Shown: piece by piece, positions 4,156 to 59,786 of the stretch
Position numbering within the stretch: position 1 is the first letter of the stretch
How the letters are laid out: the number at the start of each line of letters is the position of its first letter
Origin: Ostreococcus lucimarinus
Lineage: Eukaryota
Length of the DNA stretch: 64,000 nucleotides
Strand: one strand, 5' to 3'
NCBI GenBank assembly: GCA_000092065.1
Contig: CP000588.1
Notes under the pieces: model-generated
Databases searched by the model: none
The model's input: only the letters and a program-made list of their open reading frames with translations
Told to the model about the DNA's origin: nothing
Made by a program: the position numbers and the translations under genes

Positions 4156-7100
4156 TTAATACCAAGGCGCCCAAATCGCTGCGGAACGACTGACGTTGCG
4201 AATGTTAAGAGCGGCATCGACCAGGTGTAAGACAGCCTTTTGAACGCTCGGTACCGTGTCCGACGTGTCGGGGAGTACCGGGGTCGGGGCGATGATCGGT
4301 AACCTCCGAAGCACCTCCTGTACATTGGCGCGCGCCATGTTTTTAATCTCCGACGGCGACGGGCTCACGGGAGGGGTGTCGCCGCCCATGCGACGCCACG
4401 GCCAAACCATGAGTTGATCGCGAAAGAATAATTCAAGATGGGCCTCTAAGTCAGCTTCGGGCGCTGTGCACGCTTGCGCGGCGGACGCCATGGAGGCGAC
4501 AAAGTCACCCTTGACGCCAAACGGTGTGAAGAACGTGTGCAAGTTTCGCGTTAGGCGGAACGGCACGGGTTCGATGTACTCGACAATACCTTTTTGATCA
4601 AACGCCGGGTGGAAGTCAAGCATGAATATCTTGCCAGTATTCTTGGCGAACATGATCTTGTTCGGTGTTCGGCCGCCAATGCGTAGGAGCGCGGACAAGA
4701 AGCTTGACATTGCGAGCTGCTGCGAAAGTTGACGCTTAAACGTCCACAAGTGCGAGCTGCTCGGAAGTGTCTTGTACATGTACTGCGAGAAGATATTTTC
4801 TGTCACGTGCTTTTGCGTAATCTCCATCAGGGCTTTCAGGCGAAGCTCCAGTACCTCTTCGGTGCCCGTAACTTCTCCCAGAATCGCAGGGTCGAGCGCG
4901 GCCTTGAAGAGCGTAATCGGTAAGTCTGCTTCGCGGCCGTAACGCGCGCAGTTGGCGTCGTACACCTCGGCATACGTGCCGTTTGCATCGTCGTCTTCGA
5001 GCAAGCGCACTTGTGGCCATACTGGAACGATGGCTGGGGTGTAATAGCACATGTTTCGACGTCTCGTCTCTGTGTGCTTGGCCAAAACTCCATTCAATGT
5101 GGACAAAAGTTGCACCATGCGCTCCTCACCGCGCGCCGCCGGTGTTAGCGACGTCTGGACCAAGAATTGCTTGGACGAACCATCCGTGCCAAGGAACTCT
5201 AAGCGTCGTAAGCAGTTTCCGTTCCGTCGCACGACGTGCACATCGGCACCGATACGCTCGAGCTTGACAAAGCGATCGGTGACGCCAAACGTCAAGTCGC
5301 CCGAATACTGCCCAGGAATTTCAATCTCGTGAAACGTGACATTTCTGAGCTGGTCGGATTCAGCCTCGAGACGCAACGTCGCCGGCAATCGATCCTCAAC
5401 ATCGTTCAGTAAGCGTTGTTTCCAAGCCTTAAGCTTCACCATGAGTTCCGCAACCGTCGTCGGAAATGTACTTTCCTCCGGATTCAATTCGCGTTCGTAA
5501 CTCGCTTTGTATTCTTCGACGAAATCTGCGTGCTTCGCCGAAGTATCCGCGCTGAAGCAGGCCTTACACACGCCTATGAGTTCCTTCTTGAAGCTCTCCG
5601 GAACTTCGCCGGTCGTCGCCGCTGGATACTTGTAGCATCGGTGCAACAACGTGTAGACGACAACTAATAACCGTTCTTCAGGCGTACACGCAAATTTCGT
5701 ACCGAGTTCGCTAAGTAAGACTTCGAGCTCGCCGACCAAGTTGCCGTGTCTGGTTCGAATGTGTTCCATGATTTCTTTCGCCGCTTCGAAAGCCCAGTTG
5801 GCATCCTTCGCGCGCGATGCAGCCGCGGCAACATCGGGTGGTAAAGGTGTGCCTGGGGCGCTGGATGACTTCTGAGTAGCGCCACTCTTCTCGGCAATTG
5901 TGCGCGCAGTTTGAGTCGCTCGCGCCGCCGAGTCTCTTCGCTCGAGTAAGCACGTGCGCAATTGGTAGTAAACCGCTTGCGGGTGCGCGGCGGCGACGTC
6001 TTTGAGAATTGCCAAAGCATACGCTTGTTCCTGATGTGCGAGAGACAGAAGTAGCTGTGGAATCCAAGGAATCCAAACCCAAGTGGGCAAAGCGTCGAGA
6101 TGACGCACGATGGCGAGGCTGATAGGCTCGGGATTTACGTCAAACGCGAGCATTTGAATCACATGAATCAACTGGTGTCGATTCTCGTGAACGTTGTGCT
6201 TGACGGCTTGCAAGTAGCAGGTCGCTGTTTGTTGCGCAATGTTTGAAATAGAGCCGTCATCACCGCGCATTCGACAAAACTTGCCCCACGACAGCCACGA
6301 CTCGGCGCGTTGCTTGCACAACGACACAGAAGTCGAATACGACGCGTGCGCAGCGTCGTAATCTTCAAGCTGCTCTTGGAACTTTGCTCTCAGGCGGAAT
6401 AACTCAGCCTTTTGCGGTGGTGAGAAGAACTCCAGACTCGCAGATTCAAGGAGATTGATTCCAGTGATGGCTTCATTCTCAAACGCGAGGTACGCTTCGC
6501 ATTGTTCTCGAAGCTTTGAGAAAGCCTCTGAAACTTCAACTTGACCTTGATGACGCGACAAGATGTTCAGCGCAACCTCAGGCAAGCGCTGTTTACGCGC
6601 CGCTCGTGCAAACTTATTCAAACTCCACGCGCGCTCACGTTGACCGAGCTGATCGAGCTGTTGCGTTACTTGCAACATCGCGGGATTTTGCTCGCCGATT
6701 TGCTTTGCTGCGTGCGTCATGATGTTGTGCATGTTTCCGCGCCACATGAGGATCTCGCTCCACCACGGCACCGGATCCCATTCGTTGGGTGTGCGCAGAC
6801 GCCAAGTTTCCATGATGTCCTGAACCAACGTGCGATTGTTCGTGATCCCTTGCACGCCTCGGCGTTGGGTATTGGAAAGTTCGAGCAAGATGCGCGTAGA
6901 TTCTTGTACTTCCGCGATGGCGTTGAACATGTGAAGCGACGGAATGTGGCACGTTGAACCGGTCTCTGGAAGACGCCACCATCGATCAAGCGATGACTTA
7001 ACGGCGTTCGCCCAGTGCTGTTCAGCTTCGCGTACGCGTCCACTGACAAGTGAGGCGAACGCGCGAACTGTGGTGATTTCGGGGGTTTCCTCGATTTCAT

Positions 7101-10100
7101 TCAGCGTGCCGCTCGGCATCAGATCTTTCACACCCGCCCAATCTGAAAGTCGCCACATGCTCTGCACCATCAACTCGCTGTGCTCAACAGTTCGACTGAA
7201 GTCAGAAATCAAGTCCCATTGATTCAGTTGTTTCGCTGAATTCAGCCATTGCGTTTCCCACAGACACATCTCCGTCTTCGACACTCCCGGAGCCTGCCCA
7301 GCGGTGGCGAGCTGGATACCTTTGAAGAAGACATCTTGCGCATCTTGCCAGTGTCCGTGCTGCACGAGAGAGAGACCTGCTCGTGTGACATCGGACTGGC
7401 AACGCTGCATCCATAAGCCAACCAAAACGTCTTGCTCGTTCAACAATCGGTAAAGCTCGCTGAGAGCGTCGAAGCATCTAGCCTCTTGCGGATAGCGCAC
7501 GACGTGATTCTCGAGCAAAGCGATGGCGGTGTGCCATGCGTTGAACGTCTTACCAAGGAACTTGCTCAACTCGCTTGGAATCTTCAGCTGCGGCTGAGAA
7601 AGAGATATTCCTTCCAGTAGAGCTTGAATGACGTTTGGACGCACTGCGGCCTGACGAAGGTGCGATTCTTTACTGAGCAAACCAATCATCGGTTTGGCAA
7701 GTTGCAACTGCTCTTCGCGTTGCAATGTCGCCCAAACGATGGGGAAGATCAAGACCCAGAGATAATACGCAATGTGTGCGTTCCTCGTCGCCACTTGTCG
7801 AAGCGGCGACATTAAGTCATTTACGCGAATCTGCGCCTTTTCGTGGAGGAACTTCGCGTGGCGCTTGATCAAATCGTCGAGTTCGGCGGGATTTGCCTTC
7901 GCGTTTTTTGATTTAGCCGGAACGGGTAGAGGTTTCTTTGTCTCTGAATCAATCGGCAGAAGCGGGGTGATCAACGCACTGTTCGGAGCAAGCATGATTC
8001 TTTCATCCTCGGCGAGCGTGCTGAGAATCAAATCCAGGCCTTGCATCAACCAGAAAGTGTCCGCCATAGCATCCCAATCTTGAATGGTCAAGATATACTG
8101 CAAGCGCTGAAAGAGCGACTTGCCGATGGCGTCGTGATAAAGTGCAAAGAACTTCTTACGGAGCTCCGGCCTTCGAGTGCGGAGACCAAGCAGGTGAGTA
8201 CGTTCGACTTTGAGGAACACTTCAGTGCGCACGGCTGGGTCGTGTTTGCCCTCGGGTGCACAGAGTTTGTAAATCGCCCCCAAAAGCTTTTCTTCCCATG
8301 CTTGCGTTTGCGTGATGGCGAGGCCCATGCGCGTCAACTGTGCAAGCTTGGACAAGAACAAGACGGTTTCCTTTGCGTTCAAGCTACCGACACGTGTATC
8401 GTTGTCTTCGGGAGCGCCGCCTTCGCCCAAGGCTAAGTCGTCCGTCCAAGTAACCATAGCGTCGAGAATAGCCATGAGAACGTTACCGTGCGTTGACTTG
8501 TCATTAATGAGTTGTAGCAGTAAACGCAAGAAAATCTGCTTCTGATCTGAGCCAGCCGCAATGACTCGCTGAGATAAGATCTTGATGCACTTAGCCATGC
8601 AGTAGGCAACGCTACCGTACTCTGGTTCGAGCACTTCAGGGGGCGCTTGACCACGCTTCGGATGCGCAGCCTGAAGCTCACCCGCGGCGGACGCAGTATT
8701 CAACTCGTGCGTCATGCGCGCGAGCACCTTCATCAAGTTTGGCAGATACGTGTCAATCTTAGAAGCGGCAAAGACGGCTTCGGATTCAACCACCGTGAGA
8801 ATGCCAGCCAATGACGTGTTTGCTTGGTCGTTATTCGGCGAACTCTTTGAAATGATGGCATCTTCCGTGCATTTTACGTAAAACACCCCGATATGCTGCC
8901 TCAATTCTTCGATATCAGCGTCGTGCTTGCCGTTCGAATCGCCGTTACACTTGAGTATCTCACCGATGACTTCACCCAAAAGCCCATGCGCTTCACGGCT
9001 CGCAGACGAGTAGGAAGGTTCGATGAGGCGAAGAGTTTGTTGAATGCTTTCTGTGACGAACTCGTAATCGGGCGTCTTCAATGCGCACTTGAGAACGGAA
9101 AGACCCATGATGAGGGTAGACGTGGGATCGCGTTGGGCTTGATTTGCCAATGTCAAGAGCTTGTCGATGAAAGTGAACTTGATGCGCACAGACGGCCACA
9201 TCGCCAACGCCTTTGAGAGGAGATCTAAAGTTCGCACATTGAGAACTTGTGCGTCTTGGTCCTTACCTTCTCCAGTGATGAAAGTCATTCGAACGAGGAA
9301 GTTGACGATGATTTCAGCCATCGCCGGCGACGTTTCAAACTCCTTTTCTTCATCTTGATCGTCGGCCGATTTGGGCATCGATTTGAGCTTTTCTGTATCC
9401 GGTAAGTCACTAACCATTTCTTCGGTAGCTTCCTCTTCTTCCTTGGTCTGCTTCGCCGAGCGCGAAGCGCGCTTTGAACGTCCCGGTGATTTGCTTTCGG
9501 CTTCTTCCTTCTTCGACTTTTTGGTACCCTTCTTTCCGCGACGAGTCGGCGTCGTGACTTCCTCGTCTCTTTCTGGACTCTCCGCCGCCTTGCGCTTTCC
9601 AGTCGTCGACGGCTCAGCTTCGTTCGATCCTACTCCAGTGATTCTATCATTCTCCCAGCTAATGATGAGTTCGACCAAATCGACCGAAAGCACTCGGTTA
9701 GAATGCGAAGAGCTCGTGGGCAAGCCCAAACGCGAAAGCAAGTTTACCATCTGCCCAACAAACTGCGCTCGTGATGAGTAAAACAACTTGGAATGCCGCA
9801 CAATCAAGTTCCAAATGTGAACGAGCTGCGGAAGCGAATGACCGTCTTCGATTAAGCTCTTCTTGGTGTATCGAATCCAAATCGGGTGCTTGTGCTCACC
9901 TGGTTGAAGACGCAAAGGCAACGCTGGAGTGAGAGCGTCAAGCGCCTCGGTAACTAATGATTTTTGCTCTGGTTGATATGCCCGAAGTAACGCAACGAAG
10001 ACTTGCAATATGATCTTTTCTGGCGCTTGATACGCCTGTAAAAAGTAACTGATGTTGACGAAGGCCCATTGCTTGCTCGAAGAATCTTCACGCTTCAAGT

Positions 10101-23733: not shown

Positions 23734-24391
23734 CGTCGCGGCGTCGTCTCGGCGCGGCGCGCGTCGCCGCGCGTCGCCGCGACGGGTCGAGGGTTCGCTC
23801 GCGCGTCCGGCGCGCGTCCGGCGCGCGCGCGCGCGTGCGCGGTCGCGCGACGGGTCGGCGCGCGGTCGCGTCGCGCGCCATCGTCATCGTCGCACTGTTT
23901 GCGCATAGAACCCACAGCCACACGAGTCACGAACCCTAATTGTGCGCGCGCGACACACTCGACCGCGCGCGACGCCCGCGCGACGCCGCGAACGCTCGAC
24001 GAGGTGCGCGCGCGATCGATCGCGCGTCGATCGTTCGCGCGCGCGCGCCGGCCGCGCTCGGACGCGCGATCGAGCGCGACGCGCGAACGAACGATCGACG
24101 CGGACGCGAACGCACGCGCGCGACGCGAACGAACGCGCGCGACGCGAACGACGACGAGAGGACTGACGGCGACGCGGACGCGACGCGGACGCGACGCAGG
24201 CGCTCGGTCGCGCGCGAGATGGTGGACTCGAAGGTGCGACGACGACGACGACGCGAACGGGTGATTTCGATTTCGGGCGCGCGCGCCAACGGCTTTTTAA
24301 ACCGCGCGGCGAATCGGACGAATTGGACGCGGGAGGGGGCGATCGCGGGCGCGAGACTGACGAAAACGCGGCGAACGCGCGATAGAATGCG

Positions 24392-25291
24392 TTGCGGTTG
24401 ACGGATGAGAGCTCGCCGGAGCCGCCGAAACGGGCCATGACGGCGTATTTGATCTTTTGCAGCAAGCATCGCGAGCGAGTGATGCGGGAGGTGCACGGAG
24501 ACGACGGCGCGCGGAAGTTTTCGCGAGACGAAATGCAGTTAGTGACGACGCGGTTGGCGGAGATGTGGAATAACATTTCGGAGAAGGAGAAGAAGGAGGT
24601 GCAGGCGAAGGCGGCCGCGGCGAAGGCGGAGTATGAGATGCAGAAGGCTGCGTTTTCGCCGGCGTTGCTGAAGAAGTTGCATCGGTTGAAGAGCAAACCG
24701 AAGGGAACGGTCGTCGTGGAGGCGCAGGGTGAAAAGCCCGTGCGCGCCAAAACGGCGTATTTGATCTTCTGTGGTAAGCATCGCGCGGCGGTGATGCGGA
24801 AGATTCATCCGGAACCAGAGGCCAAGTTTACGCGCGCTGAGATGCAGCAAGTCACCACGGAGTTGGCTGCGTTGTGGAATAACATCTCCCCGCAGGAGCT
24901 CGCCGAATGCAAGGCGGCGGCGGCGAAAGAGCTCGAGCGATACAAGCAGTTGAAAGCAGAATACCGCCCGCCGGTGTACGGGCCATCCAAGCGGAACAAA
25001 GGCAAGAGCGTGCCGGGCAAGCCCAAGCGCGCTCCCACCGCGTACCTCATCTTTGCCGAAGAGTTGCGCGCCAGAATCAGACAGGAGCGACCGCATTTGA
25101 AGCACGACGAAATCTCTCAAAAACTGTCTACGGCCTGGAAGGAGATCGACGAAGCCTCCAAGAGAATCTTCCAGCAAAAGGCGGACGCAATCAAGGCGGA
25201 TCTCATGCAAAACATGCCGAGTTCTGTGATGCTCACGGGCCTGGAACACTCCTTACCGGAGCCACACTACAATACGCACATGTACCCCTAA
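24392..25291 (+). CDS. HMG-box DNA-binding protein with three tandem HMG boxes
   Basis: Three repeats of 'P(K/P)KR(A/P)xTAYLIF...W(N/K)..S..EK..' at residues ~12, ~118 and ~215 ('PPKRAMTAYLIF', 'KPVRAKTAYLIF', 'KPKRAPTAYLIF'). Confidence 0.75.
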   Translation: MRLTDESSPEPPKRAMTAYLIFCSKHRERVMREVHGDDGARKFSRDEMQLVTTRLAEMWNNISEKEKKEVQAKAAAAKAEYEMQKAAFSPALLKKLHRLKSKPKGTVVVEAQGEKPVRAKTAYLIFCGKHRAAVMRKIHPEPEAKFTRAEMQQVTTELAALWNNISPQELAECKAAAAKELERYKQLKAEYRPPVYGPSKRNKGKSVPGKPKRAPTAYLIFAEELRARIRQERPHLKHDEISQKLSTAWKEIDEASKRIFQQKADAIKADLMQNMPSSVMLTGLEHSLPEPHYNTHMYP

Positions 25292-39550: not shown

Positions 39551-40375
39551 TTAGTTAAGGCCATCGACGAATGCACAGACGGTGGATTTCAGCTCGGGAA
39601 TCACCGGATCTTTACCGACGTAACAGTCGAAGAGCGCGCGACAGAGCGAGGCGTCGGCGATGACGCTCACGCGTTTACCCTTGATGAACGTCGCGAGCTC
39701 ACCCTCGAACGTGGCGTGAAAATCCAACGAAGTCCCCTTTTTAAAACTCACACCATCGAAAATCGCCTCAAACGCCCTCAACGCCGGCGAATCGGCGTCC
39801 ATCGCCGGTCGTATGCGTTCCGCGAGTGCCTCGACGATTTTATCGCCGCCGACGTTTCGCGCGAAAACCAATCGCACCAAGCGTTCGTACGACGCCGCAT
39901 CACCATCGCGCGCACCATCGACGTCAACATAAAATCCGCACGCGTACACTTTTACGCTCAACCCTGCGATGCGTTTCACGCGGGCGCCGCGTCCCGCGAG
40001 CGCGAGCGCTTTATCGCCCGGCGTCATCGCCGCCGGCACCTTCAGCCCCGTCCTCGGCTCCGTCACCATCGCCGTCGCTTCGCTCGATGGCGTCGAACCC
40101 GCATCGCTCGGCGCGGACGTCGACGCCAGTCCCGGTCGCGCGCGCGTCGGTCGTCGTCGTCGTCGTCGTTCGGCCGACCTCGGGCGCTCGACACCGTCGA
40201 CACCATCGGCGGCATCGGCGCGCGTCCACGCGCGTCCGTCCCCGCTCGGCGCGCGCGTCGACGCGGGCGACATCTGTTCGCGCTCCGGTCGCGCGCGCGT
40301 CGTCGCGCGCGTCGCCGCGGCGCCGCGCTCTGGCGCGCGCGCGGTGCGGTCGGTCGCGCCCATGGTCTCACTCAT
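39551..40375 (-). CDS. Chalcone-isomerase-fold protein (CHI-like / fatty-acid-binding-protein-like), probable organellar presequence
   Basis: 'GLKVPAAMTPGDKALALAGRGARVKRIAGLSVKVYACGFYVD' matches the CHI-fold core (G..L.L.G.G.R......VKvYA.G.Y). Arg/Ala/Thr-rich N-terminal ~100 aa. Confidence 0.65.
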   Translation of the reverse strand: MSETMGATDRTARAPERGAAATRATTRARPEREQMSPASTRAPSGDGRAWTRADAADGVDGVERPRSAERRRRRRPTRARPGLASTSAPSDAGSTPSSEATAMVTEPRTGLKVPAAMTPGDKALALAGRGARVKRIAGLSVKVYACGFYVDVDGARDGDAASYERLVRLVFARNVGGDKIVEALAERIRPAMDADSPALRAFEAIFDGVSFKKGTSLDFHATFEGELATFIKGKRVSVIADASLCRALFDCYVGKDPVIPELKSTVCAFVDGLN

Positions 40376-40542
40376 GAATCATACGATTCATATTGTGATC
40401 GCCGCTGATCTGTCATGAAGTCTTCGTTTGTCCGAACTAAAACTCGACGCCGCGTCGGTTTTTAGTTCGATGCGCGAGCTCGCGCGCCTCGACCGCCGCG
40501 TCCGCCTCTTCGCGACGCGCCGACCGACGCACGCACGCAACC

Positions 40543-40604
40543 ATGGGACACAACGATATCTGGGCCTCTCACCCGGCCAACTACGGCAAGGGTTCTCGAC
40601 GATG
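40543..40604 (+). CDS. RPS29: 40S ribosomal protein S29 (uS14), exon 1
   Basis: 'MGHNDIWASHPANYGKGSRR' matches the RPS29 N-terminus '[20 protein letters not shown]'. Ends with split codon 'tg' followed by 'gtacgc' donor. Confidence 0.85.
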
Positions 40605-40893
40605 GTACGCGCGACGACGACGCGAACGCGACGCGCGCGATGGGACGACGACGCGATCGCGGGGCGAGACGACGACGACGGTCGCCGCGCGCGCGCGCGA
40701 TGCGACGGCGCGAGACGACGGCGAAGGGTGACTGGGTATTCGTGGCTTCGCGCGCGAGGACGATGATGCGCGGGAGGGCGATGCGTGGGACGTGGGACGG
40801 CGCGCGAAGAGAACCCTTGCCGACCCTAGGGCTTTGAGCCCGAGCGAGCGCGAGCGAGCGACTGACCGAGGTATTGTTTTACGATGAACGCAG
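40605..40893 (+). other. Spliceosomal GT-AG intron (289 nt, GC-rich) in RPS29, phase 2
   Basis: Donor 'GTACGC' at 40605. Pyrimidine-rich 'gtattgttttacgatgaacgCAG' acceptor ends at 40893. Splicing yields a perfect 56-aa RPS29 '[56 protein letters not shown]' with the C-x2-C...C-x2-C zinc knuckle intact. Confidence 0.8.
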
Positions 40894-41002
40894 CCGCGTG
40901 TGCGAAAACCAGTGGGCGATCATTCGCAAGTACGACTTGAACATCTGCCGTCAGTGCTTCCGGGAATACGCGAAGGACATCGGTTTCGTTAAGAACAACT
41001 AA
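40894..41002 (+). CDS. RPS29: 40S ribosomal protein S29 (uS14), exon 2
   Basis: '(C)[35 protein letters not shown]' matches RPS29 '[36 protein letters not shown]'. Confidence 0.85.
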
Positions 41003-41127
41003 TGTTCAAAGTGAAGACGACGCGCGCGGGTTGACGCGCCGATTAGCTAGCGGAGAGTAGACGAGGATCGTATGTGTTGTGAATGTCGATACGACCAGTT
41101 ACTTAATACAGTGTGCGAACCTACCTA

Positions 41128-44100
41128 TCAGCCGCTCAATTTTTTGCCGCTACGCGTATGACGGGGAGACGGGTCGCGCAAGAGTTTGCGTTGATCCTCT
41201 ACGTCGGACGCGAGTCTTTTTATCGCGTTTAATCGCTTGAGCTTTTTCGGCGGACCCATGACGACATCGTCTTCTCGCACTTTTTCGGCGGCTTCCCCTT
41301 CGCCGGCGGGCTCGTCGTCCTCGCTCGGCTCCGCCATTTCTTCGTCTGCGACGTCGGCGGGCTCGTCTTCTTCGCTCGCCGTCGGAGCAGGCAAACGTCG
41401 CGGCGGCGCGTCATCATCCGCGCGCATGAAACCGAAGTTATCCAGTGTTTCGTGGGTGCGCCTGACTTCTTCCATCGACTCTTCGTCGTCTACCAAGGCG
41501 CCCGTGCGCGAGAGGAGCGTGTCGACTAAAAAAGTTCCGCGATACAGACGCTCGAGACGCGAGCGATGACGCTCGGTGTACGCCCGACACGCTCTAGTGA
41601 TTTGAGAAATCTCCGGAACCTTGCTCAGTTCCTCCATGGTGTGTGTGCGGAAGATGGCGGCGAGAACGTGTTGCGCGACGTGGCACGTGCGTCCGTTTGT
41701 GTTCCACTCGCGCACGCACTTGAGCACTCGCGCGAGCTTGTCTTCGTGCAACGGCTCGACGCATTTCCGGAGTCTGGCGTCGCCATTTTCGTAGTCACTC
41801 TCCAGAAGTTTCGTCAAAACACGAAGAAGTGCACCAGGGCGCTCGAGTCTGAGCGCTAAATCGATCGCCTTCGTGACTTCGCCCGAGCGCTCGGCGTTGA
41901 AGAATGCTTGCTCGCGTTCGACGGCGAGGGCGTGCTTCTTCGCCGCATCGGCGGTGGTGCTCGACGTGGAGTCCTTCCACAGCGCCATGGACGCGTCGGT
42001 GCCCCCAGTGGCGATCCAATCGCCATCGCTTGCCACGGCCAGCGCCCAAGCTTTGTCTTCGTGCGCATCGATGGATGCGGCGCAAGACCCAGAGGTGACG
42101 TTCCATAAATTCAACAGCCCGTCGCCACCCGTGGTGACAAGCTGGGTACCTCGAGACATAAATTTAATGCTCAACACCGCTGCGGTATGACCTTCGAGCG
42201 TGCGCAAGCAAGCACCGTTGGTGTCGCTCCCAGCACGGTCATCGGCGCTCCAAATCTTCACCATCTTGTCGCCGCCCGCGGTGGCGAGTACGCGATCCGA
42301 AGGAGAAAACGCGCACGCCCAAACTCCACGACGATGGCCGCGTAGCGTGGCCAACGGAACTAAATCGGGCATTTTCCAAATCTTCGCCGTCTTATCGCTC
42401 GAACACGTGGCAACCATGCGGAGGTGCGGCGCAACGGCAACGCCGTTGAGGGACTTGTCGTGCGCCACTGTGGCCGCCGTAGCGTTCAATTCGCCGTCGC
42501 CATTTCGCCGAACTCCATCTATGTCCCATACGCGAAGCACGCGGTCGACGCCACCCGAAATGGCAAACGGTGCGCCATTTTTCGAGTTCGGGGGAAACGC
42601 TACCGCGGCAACTGCGCCGACATGGCCTTCGCCGACGGCGATGCACTCTCGCGTGGCGGCGTCCCACAGTCGTACCGTGTGATCCTTTGCGCCCGTCAAA
42701 ATGAGCGCTGTCCCGTCCGTCGTCATCGTGGCATCAACCGAGAGCACAACGGCGCTGTGACCGTTCAAAGATCCGACACATGACATCGTCGTCGGATCAA
42801 ACATACGTACCGTGGGCGAGTTGGTGACCACGGCTACTTCTCTCGGCGGTCTCGCGAGCGTTCGCTCGTCTTCATTCTCGTTCTCGTCGCTATCGCCATC
42901 GATGTTTCGCTTCTTTTGAAGTGCTTGCTCTTTCGCACCGGGTACGAACGCCAAACCGATCACTTCATCCGTATTCGCAACAATTTCGCGTTCAATCTCC
43001 AACGACGTCGTCTCTGCGTTGGCCTGGTACGTCAACAAACGCGCGTCGCCGCTCACGCCAATCAAACGGTTCCCATCGTGTGTGAGCGCACACTTCGTGA
43101 ACGTTCCCGCGGCGGCTTCAAAATCTTCGTCATTATCATCGCCTCCTTTGGTGAGCGTATTTACCGCTACGAGAGGTGCGGACTCGATCGAATGCTTCGC
43201 CGCGTTCTCGCGCCAAACTCGAACGCGTCCGCCGTCGCCGACGACGGCGAAAATGACTCCGCGCCCGCCCGGCGGCGGCTTCACCTTGCAGTCGCGAACG
43301 ATGGCTGAATCCGGACGTAAAATCACGCAATCCTCGATCGTTTCGTGAACCGCCGTCGTCGTTCGCGGATTGAGCGTGTCTAAATCAAACGTTCGAACTA
43401 TTTTGTCCCGCCCCGCGGTGAGCAACGTGTTCGATTCGACGTCGATTCGAATCGACGTCACCGCACTCACGTGCGCGTTCGCCACGAACGCGACGCAGCC
43501 ATCGGATGAGGCCTTCTTACCCTTCTTCCCGACGCCCGCCTCGCCCGTGAGCGACCACATCGCGAGCGACCCATCCTCCGCCGCGGTGAACGCTCTCGCC
43601 TCTCTAACGCTCGGATGAAACGCCGTCGCCGTCACCGCCCCTCCGTGCTTCCCGCGAAACGCGTGCGTGCAGTACCCTCGTTCGATGTCCCACACTCGCG
43701 CCGTTCGATCGGCGCTCCCCGTGCACAACAGCGTCCCCGTGACGTCCACGCACATGTCCAACACCGGCGACGTCTTGTGCGGCGACCACGCCTTCGTCCT
43801 CCGCATCGTCGTCCCCCCCCTCCCATCCTCCATCGCGTCCAACCGCACGACGCGTCCGCTCCGACTCGCGCAAAACACCTTCGTCCCGCTTCGATCCATC
43901 GCGATCGACGTCATCGCCTCCCCATCGCCCTCGTCCCGCGCGAGCGCCGTCGTCGTCGACGTCGTCGCCGCGTCGCCTCGCCGCGTCGTCGACCGCGTCA
44001 GCGACACCCCTCCCTCGCGCGTCGCGCACGCGTACACCACCTCATCCGCGCGCGTCTCCCGTCGCGCCGCGCGCGCCTTCGGCGCGCGCGTCTCGCGTCC

Positions 44101-44265
44101 GTCGCCGTCGCCGTCGTTCGTCCCGTCGCCGTCGCCGCCGCCGTCCCGCGCCGGCGTCGCGATCGCCATCGGCGCGCCGCGTCCGACGTAGAACGCGCCC
44201 AACCGCGAGGACGCCGCGACGGACGTCCGCGCGCGCGCTCGGCGCTCGCGAGACGTCGTCGCCAT
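41128..44265 (-). CDS. UTP13: U3 snoRNP / SSU processome WD40 protein UTP13 (TBL3)
   Basis: More than 10 WD40 repeats (e.g. 'GSADRTARVWD', 'GAKDHTVRLWD', 'CSSDKTAKIWK', 'AGGDKMVKIWS') followed by the Utp13 C-terminal domain 'AIDLALRLERPGALLRVLTKLL...LKCVREWNTNGRTCHVAQHVLAAIF'. Start set at 'MATTSRERRA' (44265) because the first ATG of the ORF (44382) lies inside the tandem repeat at 44341..44625. Confidence 0.8.
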   Translation of the reverse strand: MATTSRERRARARTSVAASSRLGAFYVGRGAPMAIATPARDGGGDGDGTNDGDGDGRETRAPKARAARRETRADEVVYACATREGGVSLTRSTTRRGDAATTSTTTALARDEGDGEAMTSIAMDRSGTKVFCASRSGRVVRLDAMEDGRGGTTMRRTKAWSPHKTSPVLDMCVDVTGTLLCTGSADRTARVWDIERGYCTHAFRGKHGGAVTATAFHPSVREARAFTAAEDGSLAMWSLTGEAGVGKKGKKASSDGCVAFVANAHVSAVTSIRIDVESNTLLTAGRDKIVRTFDLDTLNPRTTTAVHETIEDCVILRPDSAIVRDCKVKPPPGGRGVIFAVVGDGGRVRVWRENAAKHSIESAPLVAVNTLTKGGDDNDEDFEAAAGTFTKCALTHDGNRLIGVSGDARLLTYQANAETTSLEIEREIVANTDEVIGLAFVPGAKEQALQKKRNIDGDSDENENEDERTLARPPREVAVVTNSPTVRMFDPTTMSCVGSLNGHSAVVLSVDATMTTDGTALILTGAKDHTVRLWDAATRECIAVGEGHVGAVAAVAFPPNSKNGAPFAISGGVDRVLRVWDIDGVRRNGDGELNATAATVAHDKSLNGVAVAPHLRMVATCSSDKTAKIWKMPDLVPLATLRGHRRGVWACAFSPSDRVLATAGGDKMVKIWSADDRAGSDTNGACLRTLEGHTAAVLSIKFMSRGTQLVTTGGDGLLNLWNVTSGSCAASIDAHEDKAWALAVASDGDWIATGGTDASMALWKDSTSSTTADAAKKHALAVEREQAFFNAERSGEVTKAIDLALRLERPGALLRVLTKLLESDYENGDARLRKCVEPLHEDKLARVLKCVREWNTNGRTCHVAQHVLAAIFRTHTMEELSKVPEISQITRACRAYTERHRSRLERLYRGTFLVDTLLSRTGALVDDEESMEEVRRTHETLDNFGFMRADDDAPPRRLPAPTASEEDEPADVADEEMAEPSEDDEPAGEGEAAEKVREDDVVMGPPKKLKRLNAIKRLASDVEDQRKLLRDPSPRHTRSGKKLSG

Positions 44266-44340
44266 CGTCGCCGTCGCCGTCGTCGTCGTCGCGCTCTGCG
44301 TCGGACGCGCGGTCGTTCTCGCGTTTTCACGCGCGTTTTC

Positions 44341-44625
44341 GCGTTTTACTGGTGGCGTGTCACTCGTTTTATCGTACACCACGTCTCGTGATCACCATGA
44401 TTGAAACGGGACCCCGCGATCGATCGCTTACTGTTTGCGCACGCGGTCGGTACGCGGTCGGTACGCGGTCGGTCGCGCGTGTTCGCGCGCGCGTGCGTTT
44501 TACTGGTGGCGTGTCACTCGTTTGAATCGTACACCACGTCTCGTGATCACCATGATTGGAACGGGTCCCCGCGATCGATCGCTGACTGTTTGCGCACACG
44601 GTCGCGCACGCGGTCGGTCGGTCGG
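44341..44625. repeat. Tandem direct duplication (~154 bp period, two copies ~95% identical) with embedded (CGGT)n tracts
   Basis: Copy 1 (from 44341) is 'gcgttttactggtggcgtgtcactcgttttatcgtacaccacgtctcgtgatcaccatgattgaaacgggaccccgcgatcgatcgcttactgtttgcgcacgcggtcgg'. Copy 2 (from 44495) is 'gcgttttactggtggcgtgtcactcgtttgaatcgtacaccacgtctcgtgatcaccatgattggaacgggtccccgcgatcgatcgctgactgtttgcgcacacggtcg', followed by 'cggtcggtcggtcggtcg'. Confidence 0.85.
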
Positions 44626-59414: not shown

Positions 59415-59786
59415 ATGCGCGTCGGCGTCCCGTCGACGCGCGCGCCGTCGACGCGCCCATCGCCATCGTTCGCGCCGTCCGCGTCGTCGTCGTCCGCGCG
59501 CGCGTCGCGCCCCGCGCGCGCGAACACCGTCTCGACACTCTTCGCAACCGGCGACGACGCGCGCGGCGACGCGTCGCGTCGCGCCGATCCCGCGCCCGAG
59601 ACGCGGTGTCCGGTGTGCCGCGGCACGGGCTGGAAGCCGTGCGGGCAGTGCGAGGGCACGGGGATCAACCCGAGCGACGCGTTCGGGGGCAAGTTTAAAG
59701 CCGGCGACGCGTGTTGGCTGTGCGAGGGCAAAAACGGCGCGCGGACGATGTGCGGGAACTGCGTCGACCTCACGGACACGTTTTGA
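59415..59786 (+). CDS. DnaJ-like zinc-finger (CxxCxGxG) protein, BSD2-like, with Ser/Ala/Arg-rich presequence
   Basis: Four Cys pairs in the C-terminal 60 aa: 'CPVCRGTG', 'CGQCEGTG', 'CWLCEG', 'CGNC'. This is the DnaJ zinc-finger-only architecture of the plastid BSD2/LQY1-type family. N-terminal 70 aa are transit-peptide-like. Confidence 0.6.
   Translation: MRVGVPSTRAPSTRPSPSFAPSASSSSARASRPARANTVSTLFATGDDARGDASRRADPAPETRCPVCRGTGWKPCGQCEGTGINPSDAFGGKFKAGDACWLCEGKNGARTMCGNCVDLTDTF

Follow-up and report, generated by a model that had tools for sequence, protein, structure and literature searches.

The 64,000-nucleotide (nt) stretch of Ostreococcus lucimarinus DNA analysed here (contig CP000588.1 of assembly GCA_000092065.1), hereafter the window, carries the gene of the ribosomal protein RPS29, whose coding sequence is divided by a spliceosomal GT-AG intron (Table 1). 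The intron interrupts the Cys21 codon as TG/C and has a GC content of 0.696, which exceeds that of the exons (0.538) and that of the window (0.593); direct reading thus bears out the 289-nt, phase 2, GC-rich intron described in an earlier reading of the same DNA made without database searches (the sequence-only reading). Exon 1 is of identical length in all Ostreococcus lineages compared. The spliced product of 56 amino acids (aa) is a 100% match to XP_001419101.1/ABO97394.1, which the public annotation of O. lucimarinus CCE9901 lists as 'Ribosomal protein S29', so that the split gene model is known already. The Pfam family Ribosomal_S14 (PF00253) matches residues 7-54 of the spliced protein with 49.4 bits (cut-off 27), over profile positions 2-52 of 54, and no Pfam match is obtained for the unspliced read-through open reading frame (ORF). 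In comparison with S29/uS14 chains of solved 40S/80S structures, the spliced protein is collinear from end to end (best E=4e-24, residues 1-54 to 1-54), and the zinc-knuckle cysteines C21, C24, C39 and C42 can be read in it. Translation, Pfam match, structure chains and identity to XP_001419101.1 together confirm that the gene is split at the proposed boundaries and that splicing restores a full 56-aa RPS29, as the sequence-only reading had claimed. We put the probability at about 93% that this gene encodes the cytosolic ribosomal protein RPS29 (uS14) and is split by one ordinary U2-type GT-AG intron. The framing of the organism as a 'Micromonas-type' alga had to be dropped, as two proteins of the window (XP_001419101.1 and XP_001419099.1) agree exactly with the O. 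lucimarinus annotation.

The removal of the intron is visible in assembled contigs. Contig L040 (JGI 3300016815, 3520 nt), which is 99.0-99.5% identical to the window, joins position 40604 directly to 40894; its first 16 nt are exon 2 sequence in inverted orientation, a hairpin artefact typical of transcript assemblies, after which it aligns from window position 40506, 37 nt before the ATG. The RPS29 coding sequence is joined at the same junction in ten short contigs of a related, fifth lineage (L007-L016), seven of which begin 34-37 nt before the RPS29 ATG. We infer that L040 and L007-L016 are transcript assemblies because of their shared 5' ends, the lack of the intron and the hairpin artefact of L040. 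The intron is present in all eleven other genomic contigs of the O. lucimarinus type (the window not counted).

The splice signals place the intron in a class that has been described before. Outside chromosome 2, only 396 introns have been predicted and 319 confirmed by expressed sequence tags (EST) in O. lucimarinus, with the donor consensus GTGCGTG and the branch motif GACTGACG, and with ACTGAC in 87% of the confirmed introns (Irimia & Roy 2008, PMC2483917). According to the same study, GenBank contains 17,592 O. lucimarinus ESTs. The RPS29 intron is an ordinary member of this class. The CTRAY branch-point motif some 20-40 nt 5' of the acceptor, for which the sequence-only reading had proposed to look, is present as GACTGAC at 40860..40866, with its A 28 nt from the last base of the intron, and all four Ostreococcus lineages have the motif in RPS29 intron 1 at a distance of 28-31 nt from the AG. 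The donor is GTGCGTC in O. tauri and GTGCGCG in two further Ostreococcus lineages obtained from a metagenome scan (lineages 3b and 4). Splicing proceeds from G/GTACGCG (40604/40605) via the branch adenosine of GACTGACC, presumably A40865, to CAG/ (40893/40894), and thereby rejoins the codon of Cys21, with which the CxxC...CxxC zinc knuckle begins, to give the 56-aa protein.

In RPS29 of O. tauri, which has the same neighbour genes, an intron of 311 nt lies at the same site and in the same phase, and the introns of lineages 3b and 4 (309 and 306 nt) share the site as well. Bathycoccus prasinos RPS29, which adjoins a divergent chalcone-isomerase-like gene, has a 375-nt intron at the same site and phase. 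In Trebouxia, the yeast Lipomyces kononenkoae and the mosquito Anopheles ziemanni, whose RPS29 exon structures were reconstructed from annotated genes, coding nucleotide 62 is likewise followed by a phase 2 intron. The body of intron 1 is essentially unalignable among the Ostreococcus lineages and has diverged in place. Judged by a position and phase common to green algae, fungi and insects, the RPS29 intron is ancestral; since algae, yeast and mosquito share the position, it predates the split between green plants and opisthokonts. The intron has been retained in a genome from which nearly all introns outside chromosome 2 were lost, as is common for ribosomal-protein genes in intron-poor eukaryotes, and the sequence-only reading, which had noted this pattern, is in accord with the low intron counts of the genome (396 predicted, 319 EST-confirmed; PMC2483917). 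The intron would have been kept by selection for expression, or because this highly expressed gene is regulated by way of splicing. For the human RPS29 c.63-3 splice variant, a search of the literature had no result.

A second RPS29 intron varies within the genus. Lipomyces, Anopheles and Trebouxia have one after nucleotide 162, in phase 0, whereas O. lucimarinus, O. tauri and Bathycoccus do not. In lineages 3b and 4 (L019, minus strand; L020, about 4605..4718) a second intron of 114-147 nt, in phase 0, follows codon 53 (nucleotide 159), 3 nt before the position in fungi, insects and Trebouxia, and leaves a 12-nt last exon, AAGCACCAGTAA. The 3' tail of O. lucimarinus intron 1 (40860..40893, GACTGACCGAGGTATTGTTTTACGATGAACGCAG) is closer to the tail of this intron 2 of lineages 3b and 4 (GACTGACCGAGCGATCATCTTTTTTGACGATGCGCAG) than to the intron 1 tails of the other lineages. 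The fifth lineage, whose RPS29 ends in ...GFVKYN, was seen only as intron-free contigs of at most 2 kb, and a UTP13 protein query for its genomic contigs returned only short contigs. As L013 (1..343) of this lineage has 343 nt before the ATG and so reaches into promoter-like sequence, its RPS29 may be truly intron-less. L014 (1..170) is a chimera with an inverted piece of lineage 3b that comprises exon 2 and the 3' end of the intron.

Table 1. Features of the RPS29 and HMG-box genes in the window (positions are those of the 64,000-nt stretch).
Feature	Position	Strand	Description
RPS29 exon 1, coding part	40543..40604	+	62 nt; M1-R20 and first two bases (TG) of the Cys21 codon; direct reading
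RPS29 spliceosomal GT-AG intron	40605..40893	+	289 nt; phase 2; GTACGC...CAG; direct reading
RPS29 exon 2, coding part	40894..41002	+	third base of the Cys21 codon to N56; TAA stop at 41000..41002
5' splice site GTACGCG	40605..40611	+	5/7 match to GTGCGTG, the O. lucimarinus consensus outside chromosome 2
Branch-site motif GACTGACC	40860..40867	+	canonical Ostreococcus form GACTGACG; predicted branch A at 40865
3' splice site CAG	40891..40893	+	direct reading; L040 junction
Invariant intronic block CCTAGGGCTTTGA	40825..40837	+	13 nt; intron 1 of four Ostreococcus lineages
Exon-1 arm CGGCAAGGGTTCTC	40584..40597	+	perfect 14-bp inverted repeat; ends 7 nt before the 5' splice site
Intron arm GAGAACCCTTGCCG	40809..40822	+	complement of 40584..40597; 2 nt 5' of the invariant block, 37 nt 5' of the branch motif
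Promoter/transcription-start motif CCGCCTCTTCGCGACGCG	40502..40519	+	conserved in O. tauri and lineages 3b and 4; nearly so in the fifth lineage
HMG-box gene exon 1	24219..24233	+	15 nt; MVDSK
HMG-box gene intron	24234..24385	+	152 nt; phase 0; donor GTGCGAC, acceptor TAG
HMG-box intron branch motif GACTGACG	24355..24362	+	motif scan
HMG-box gene exon 2	24386..25291	+	spliced product 306 aa

The claim of the sequence-only reading that RPS29 holds the only clear spliceosomal intron in the window does not survive, given the annotated product and the L048 junction of an HMG-box gene. Its spliced 306-aa protein is exactly XP_001419099.1, and its coding sequence is uninterrupted in three Logan contigs from three sequencing runs, in one of which (L048) a check of the alignment showed 24233 directly followed by 24386. 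The intron is easily overlooked, as an internal ATG occurs in the long ORF downstream of it; a scan by eye for uninterrupted ORFs thus passed over a real intron behind a first exon of five codons. The motif GACTGACG occurs twice just upstream of the HMG-box ORF. A candidate intron of the 5' untranslated region (UTR) at 24004..24199 (+; 196 nt, GC 0.76, GTGCGCG...GACTGACG...GCAG) has perfect signals, but is retained in L048, and remains unsupported, being either an inefficiently spliced 5' UTR intron or no intron. A brute-force scan of the window for donor, branch and acceptor gave mostly false positives and was replaced by a codon-usage frame map, Pfam and an ACTGAC scan, by which no further introns were evident in the window; the frame map had no frame switches within genes, and adjacent same-strand ORFs were separate genes with intact Pfam domains. 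Short 5' exons may still exist elsewhere in the window, which holds at least two introns. The O. lucimarinus genome has a size of roughly 12 Mb. Two introns per 64 kb is about the number to be expected from a few hundred introns (PMC2483917) in a genome of this size.

Upstream of RPS29, the transcript-like contig L040 starts within the conserved motif CCGCCTCTTCGCGACGCG, at 40506 (CTCTTCG, pyrimidine-rich), and the pre-mRNA probably begins near this position. Because the transcript-like contigs start inside CCGCCTCTTCGCGACGCG, a pyrimidine-rich initiator is suggested, like that of ribosomal-protein genes elsewhere. The 168-nt divergent promoter between RPS29 and a chalcone-isomerase-like gene contains an 18-nt near-palindrome, CGAACTAAAACTCGACGC / GCGTCGGTTTTTAGTTCG (40433..40469, +), which is 89% complementary with a 1-nt spacer and is the source of a spurious mir-434 match. 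Downstream, RPS29 and the convergent gene UTP13 (41128..44382, minus strand) are 125 nt apart (gap 41003..41127), and the transcript-like contigs L040 and L007-L012 run through both genes, which suggests overlapping 3' UTRs. Overlapping 3' UTRs of convergent gene pairs have been described in Micromonas (PMC4815162).

Several alternatives to an ordinary, inherited intron have to be considered. Prokaryote-style gene callers give only fragments of RPS29 on metagenome contigs, namely ORFs of 62 and 43 aa, as would be expected of a frameshifted pseudogene or of two unrelated short ORFs with no intron between them. This explanation is refuted by the annotation of the exact spliced product, by the full-length uS14 that splicing yields, by the intron-free form in transcript-like contigs and by the split structure kept in at least five genera, and its chance of being correct is negligible. 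An introner element, that is, a recently arisen, repetitive intron derived from a transposon, like those of Micromonas pusilla, had been suggested by the sequence-only reading on the basis of internal (gacgacg)/(gcgcgcg) tracts. These tracts exist in the GC-rich RPS29 intron, as low-complexity arrays, and the related genus Micromonas is rich in introner elements (PMC4815162, PMC3879977), though none is described for Ostreococcus in these studies and Ostreococcus sequences fell into the intron-less class of a polymerase chain reaction survey. What defines introner elements is the high identity of their copies, which number hundreds to thousands (PMC4815162). By blastn, the RPS29 intron has no second copy in the 64-kb window, where it gave only low-complexity matches of 70-80% identity between its first 120 nt and GC-rich stretches, many of them coding. 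Its similarity to the HMG-box gene intron is at chance level, the observed score being reached by 59 of 300 shuffles. A metagenome scan for the conserved core of the intron plus the branch motif returned 18 loci, comprising 12 Ostreococcus RPS29 introns and 6 unrelated chance matches, with no match in any other Ostreococcus gene, and in the 47 loci fetched, each Ostreococcus locus contains the core a single time, invariably in RPS29 intron 1. Transposon hallmarks at the ends of introners are terminal inverted repeats and a target-site duplication. No inverted repeat joining both ends of the RPS29 intron was found, and a short ACGATG repeat, with one copy at the exon 1 end and the other 7 nt 5' of the acceptor, is not conserved in other lineages. 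Favouring the introner suggestion, a 17-mer, CGACGACGACGCGAACG, is common to both confirmed introns of the window, 7-9 nt after their donors (40612..40628 and 24243..24259, +). It has only these two exact occurrences in the window, plus one copy with one mismatch at 59476..59492 (minus strand), and exact 17-mer matches of the low-complexity part of the RPS29 intron also occur elsewhere; the common 17-mer may thus be due to chance in (GAC)n-rich sequence, or may be a shared 5' intronic element. An introner origin is excluded by the ancient position, which Bathycoccus, Trebouxia, a yeast and a mosquito have in common with O. lucimarinus, together with the lack of further copies in the data searched, and the orthologous introns of four Ostreococcus lineages, similar in length and diverged in sequence, likewise speak against it; we consider it hardly credible.

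Some observations do weigh against an entirely plain intron, or limit how firmly it can be asserted. The 5' splice site departs from the consensus at +3 and +6, the transcript (as opposed to genome) nature of the samples behind L040 and L007-L016 is deduced from their sequences, and 'single copy' refers to the 64-kb window, the 47 loci and, for the conserved core alone, one pattern scan, not to the whole genome. In addition, the invariant block CCTAGGGCTTTGA and the 14-bp complement between exon 1 and the intron hint at a function beyond that of a plain intron. The block, which is unique in the window and recurs at 4317..4329 of L017, 4450..4462 of L020 and 7651..7663 (minus strand) of L019, is the longest common substring of the four introns (13 nt; 300 shuffles share at most 10), stays invariant in introns otherwise saturated with change, and lies at a fixed place, 57-69 nt from the intron 3' end, in all four lineages, whose introns keep a length of 289-311 nt. 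The perfect 14-nt complement was reached by 0 of 1000 dinucleotide shuffles, and its duplex energy is -36.2 kcal/mol, while shuffled sequences average -25.5 and go no lower than -32.2. The 14-bp helix could loop out about 211 nt of the pre-mRNA, so that the 5' splice site would come to lie near the branch site. The intron might therefore be ordinary and also contain a cis-regulatory element, with CCTAGGGCTTTGA bound by a protein or RNA that tunes RPS29 splicing or transcription and the helix bridging the sites. We regard this as unlikely: the block is absent from the Bathycoccus RPS29 intron and has no consistent RNA pairing partner by minimum free energy folding and RNAduplex in the four lineages (-10 to -14 kcal/mol, equal to background), RNAalifold finds no covariation support in the last 170 nt of the introns (term +0.24), the intron has no Rfam match, and the 14-bp complement occurs in O. 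lucimarinus only, the other lineages having 8-9 nt, which is the level of chance (O. tauri at the 5% tail). Because the complement is not conserved, it may equally be a lineage-specific accident. Somewhat less likely still is the more specific idea that CCTAGGGCTTTGA is a dedicated cis-regulatory element tuning RPS29 output via splicing, for example through feedback by free uS14 or as a decoy of its ribosomal RNA site (uS14 binds the 3' major domain of 18S rRNA), with the O. lucimarinus helix acting with it; if true, such an element would explain why the intron and its length of about 300 nt have been kept across the genus despite wide intron loss. Many ribosomal-protein introns host small nucleolar RNAs (snoRNAs), and a snoRNA or other structured non-coding RNA within the RPS29 intron would fit the conserved length, the invariant block and the GATGA-like (C-box-like) strings that precede the CTGA of the branch motif by 100-150 nt. 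Read by eye as a C/D-box pair, GATGA ... CTGA was discarded for want of a terminal stem and for its variable spacing. The C-box-like strings are conserved in neither sequence nor spacing, the CTGA is part of the canonical branch motif, no conserved terminal stem is present, the consensus fold lacks covariation support, and an Rfam search of 40300..41200 at E<=10 yielded no family for the intron, its only match being the meaningless one to mir-434 (E=3.9) on the promoter palindrome; a hosted RNA is thus very improbable.

The RPS29 feature is an already annotated, ancestral and canonical intron, ordinary and already known, whose boundaries, product, removal from transcript-like contigs, orthologous position and single-copy status in the data searched are direct observations. 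As such, it matters little in itself, the gene model being public and the intron being of a described class, and the useful outcomes are corrective. The invariant block and the variable second RPS29 intron in Ostreococcus might nevertheless serve as small test cases for the survival of introns in intron-poor genomes.

Ribosomal-protein introns of yeast can contain long-range pairings or autoregulatory structures (RPS17B/RP51B, RPS14B, RPL30). By analogy, the O. lucimarinus helix between exon 1 and the intron, near the branch site, may resemble those pairings that shorten the distance between the 5' splice site and the branch; the helix is not conserved in other Ostreococcus lineages. The introner elements of Micromonas (D-IE1, D-IE2, ABC-IE) are likewise functional spliceosomal introns of a Mamiellophyceae alga, and the ABC-IE family of Micromonas RCC299 has the same GACTGACG branch motif (PMC3879977), whereas the RPS29 intron is single-copy in all data searched, ancient in position and diverged in place between species. 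With RPS29/uS14 of B. prasinos, Trebouxia sp., L. kononenkoae and A. ziemanni, it shares the setting in a zinc-knuckle protein of 56 aa (55 in Trebouxia) and the location inside the first Cys codon, while the intron sequences are unrelated apart from the splice signals. Against all predicted introns of O. lucimarinus, the RPS29 intron is longer (289 nt, compared with a median of 111 and a mean of 168) and lower in AT (30%, compared with an average of 37%), and its donor is GTACGCG where the consensus is GTGCGTG (PMC2483917). With the canonical introns outside chromosome 2, it nonetheless shares the extended GACTGAC(G) branch motif about 30 nt from the AG, a GTRCG-type donor, a GC-rich sequence and its rarity, at a few hundred introns per genome (PMC2483917).

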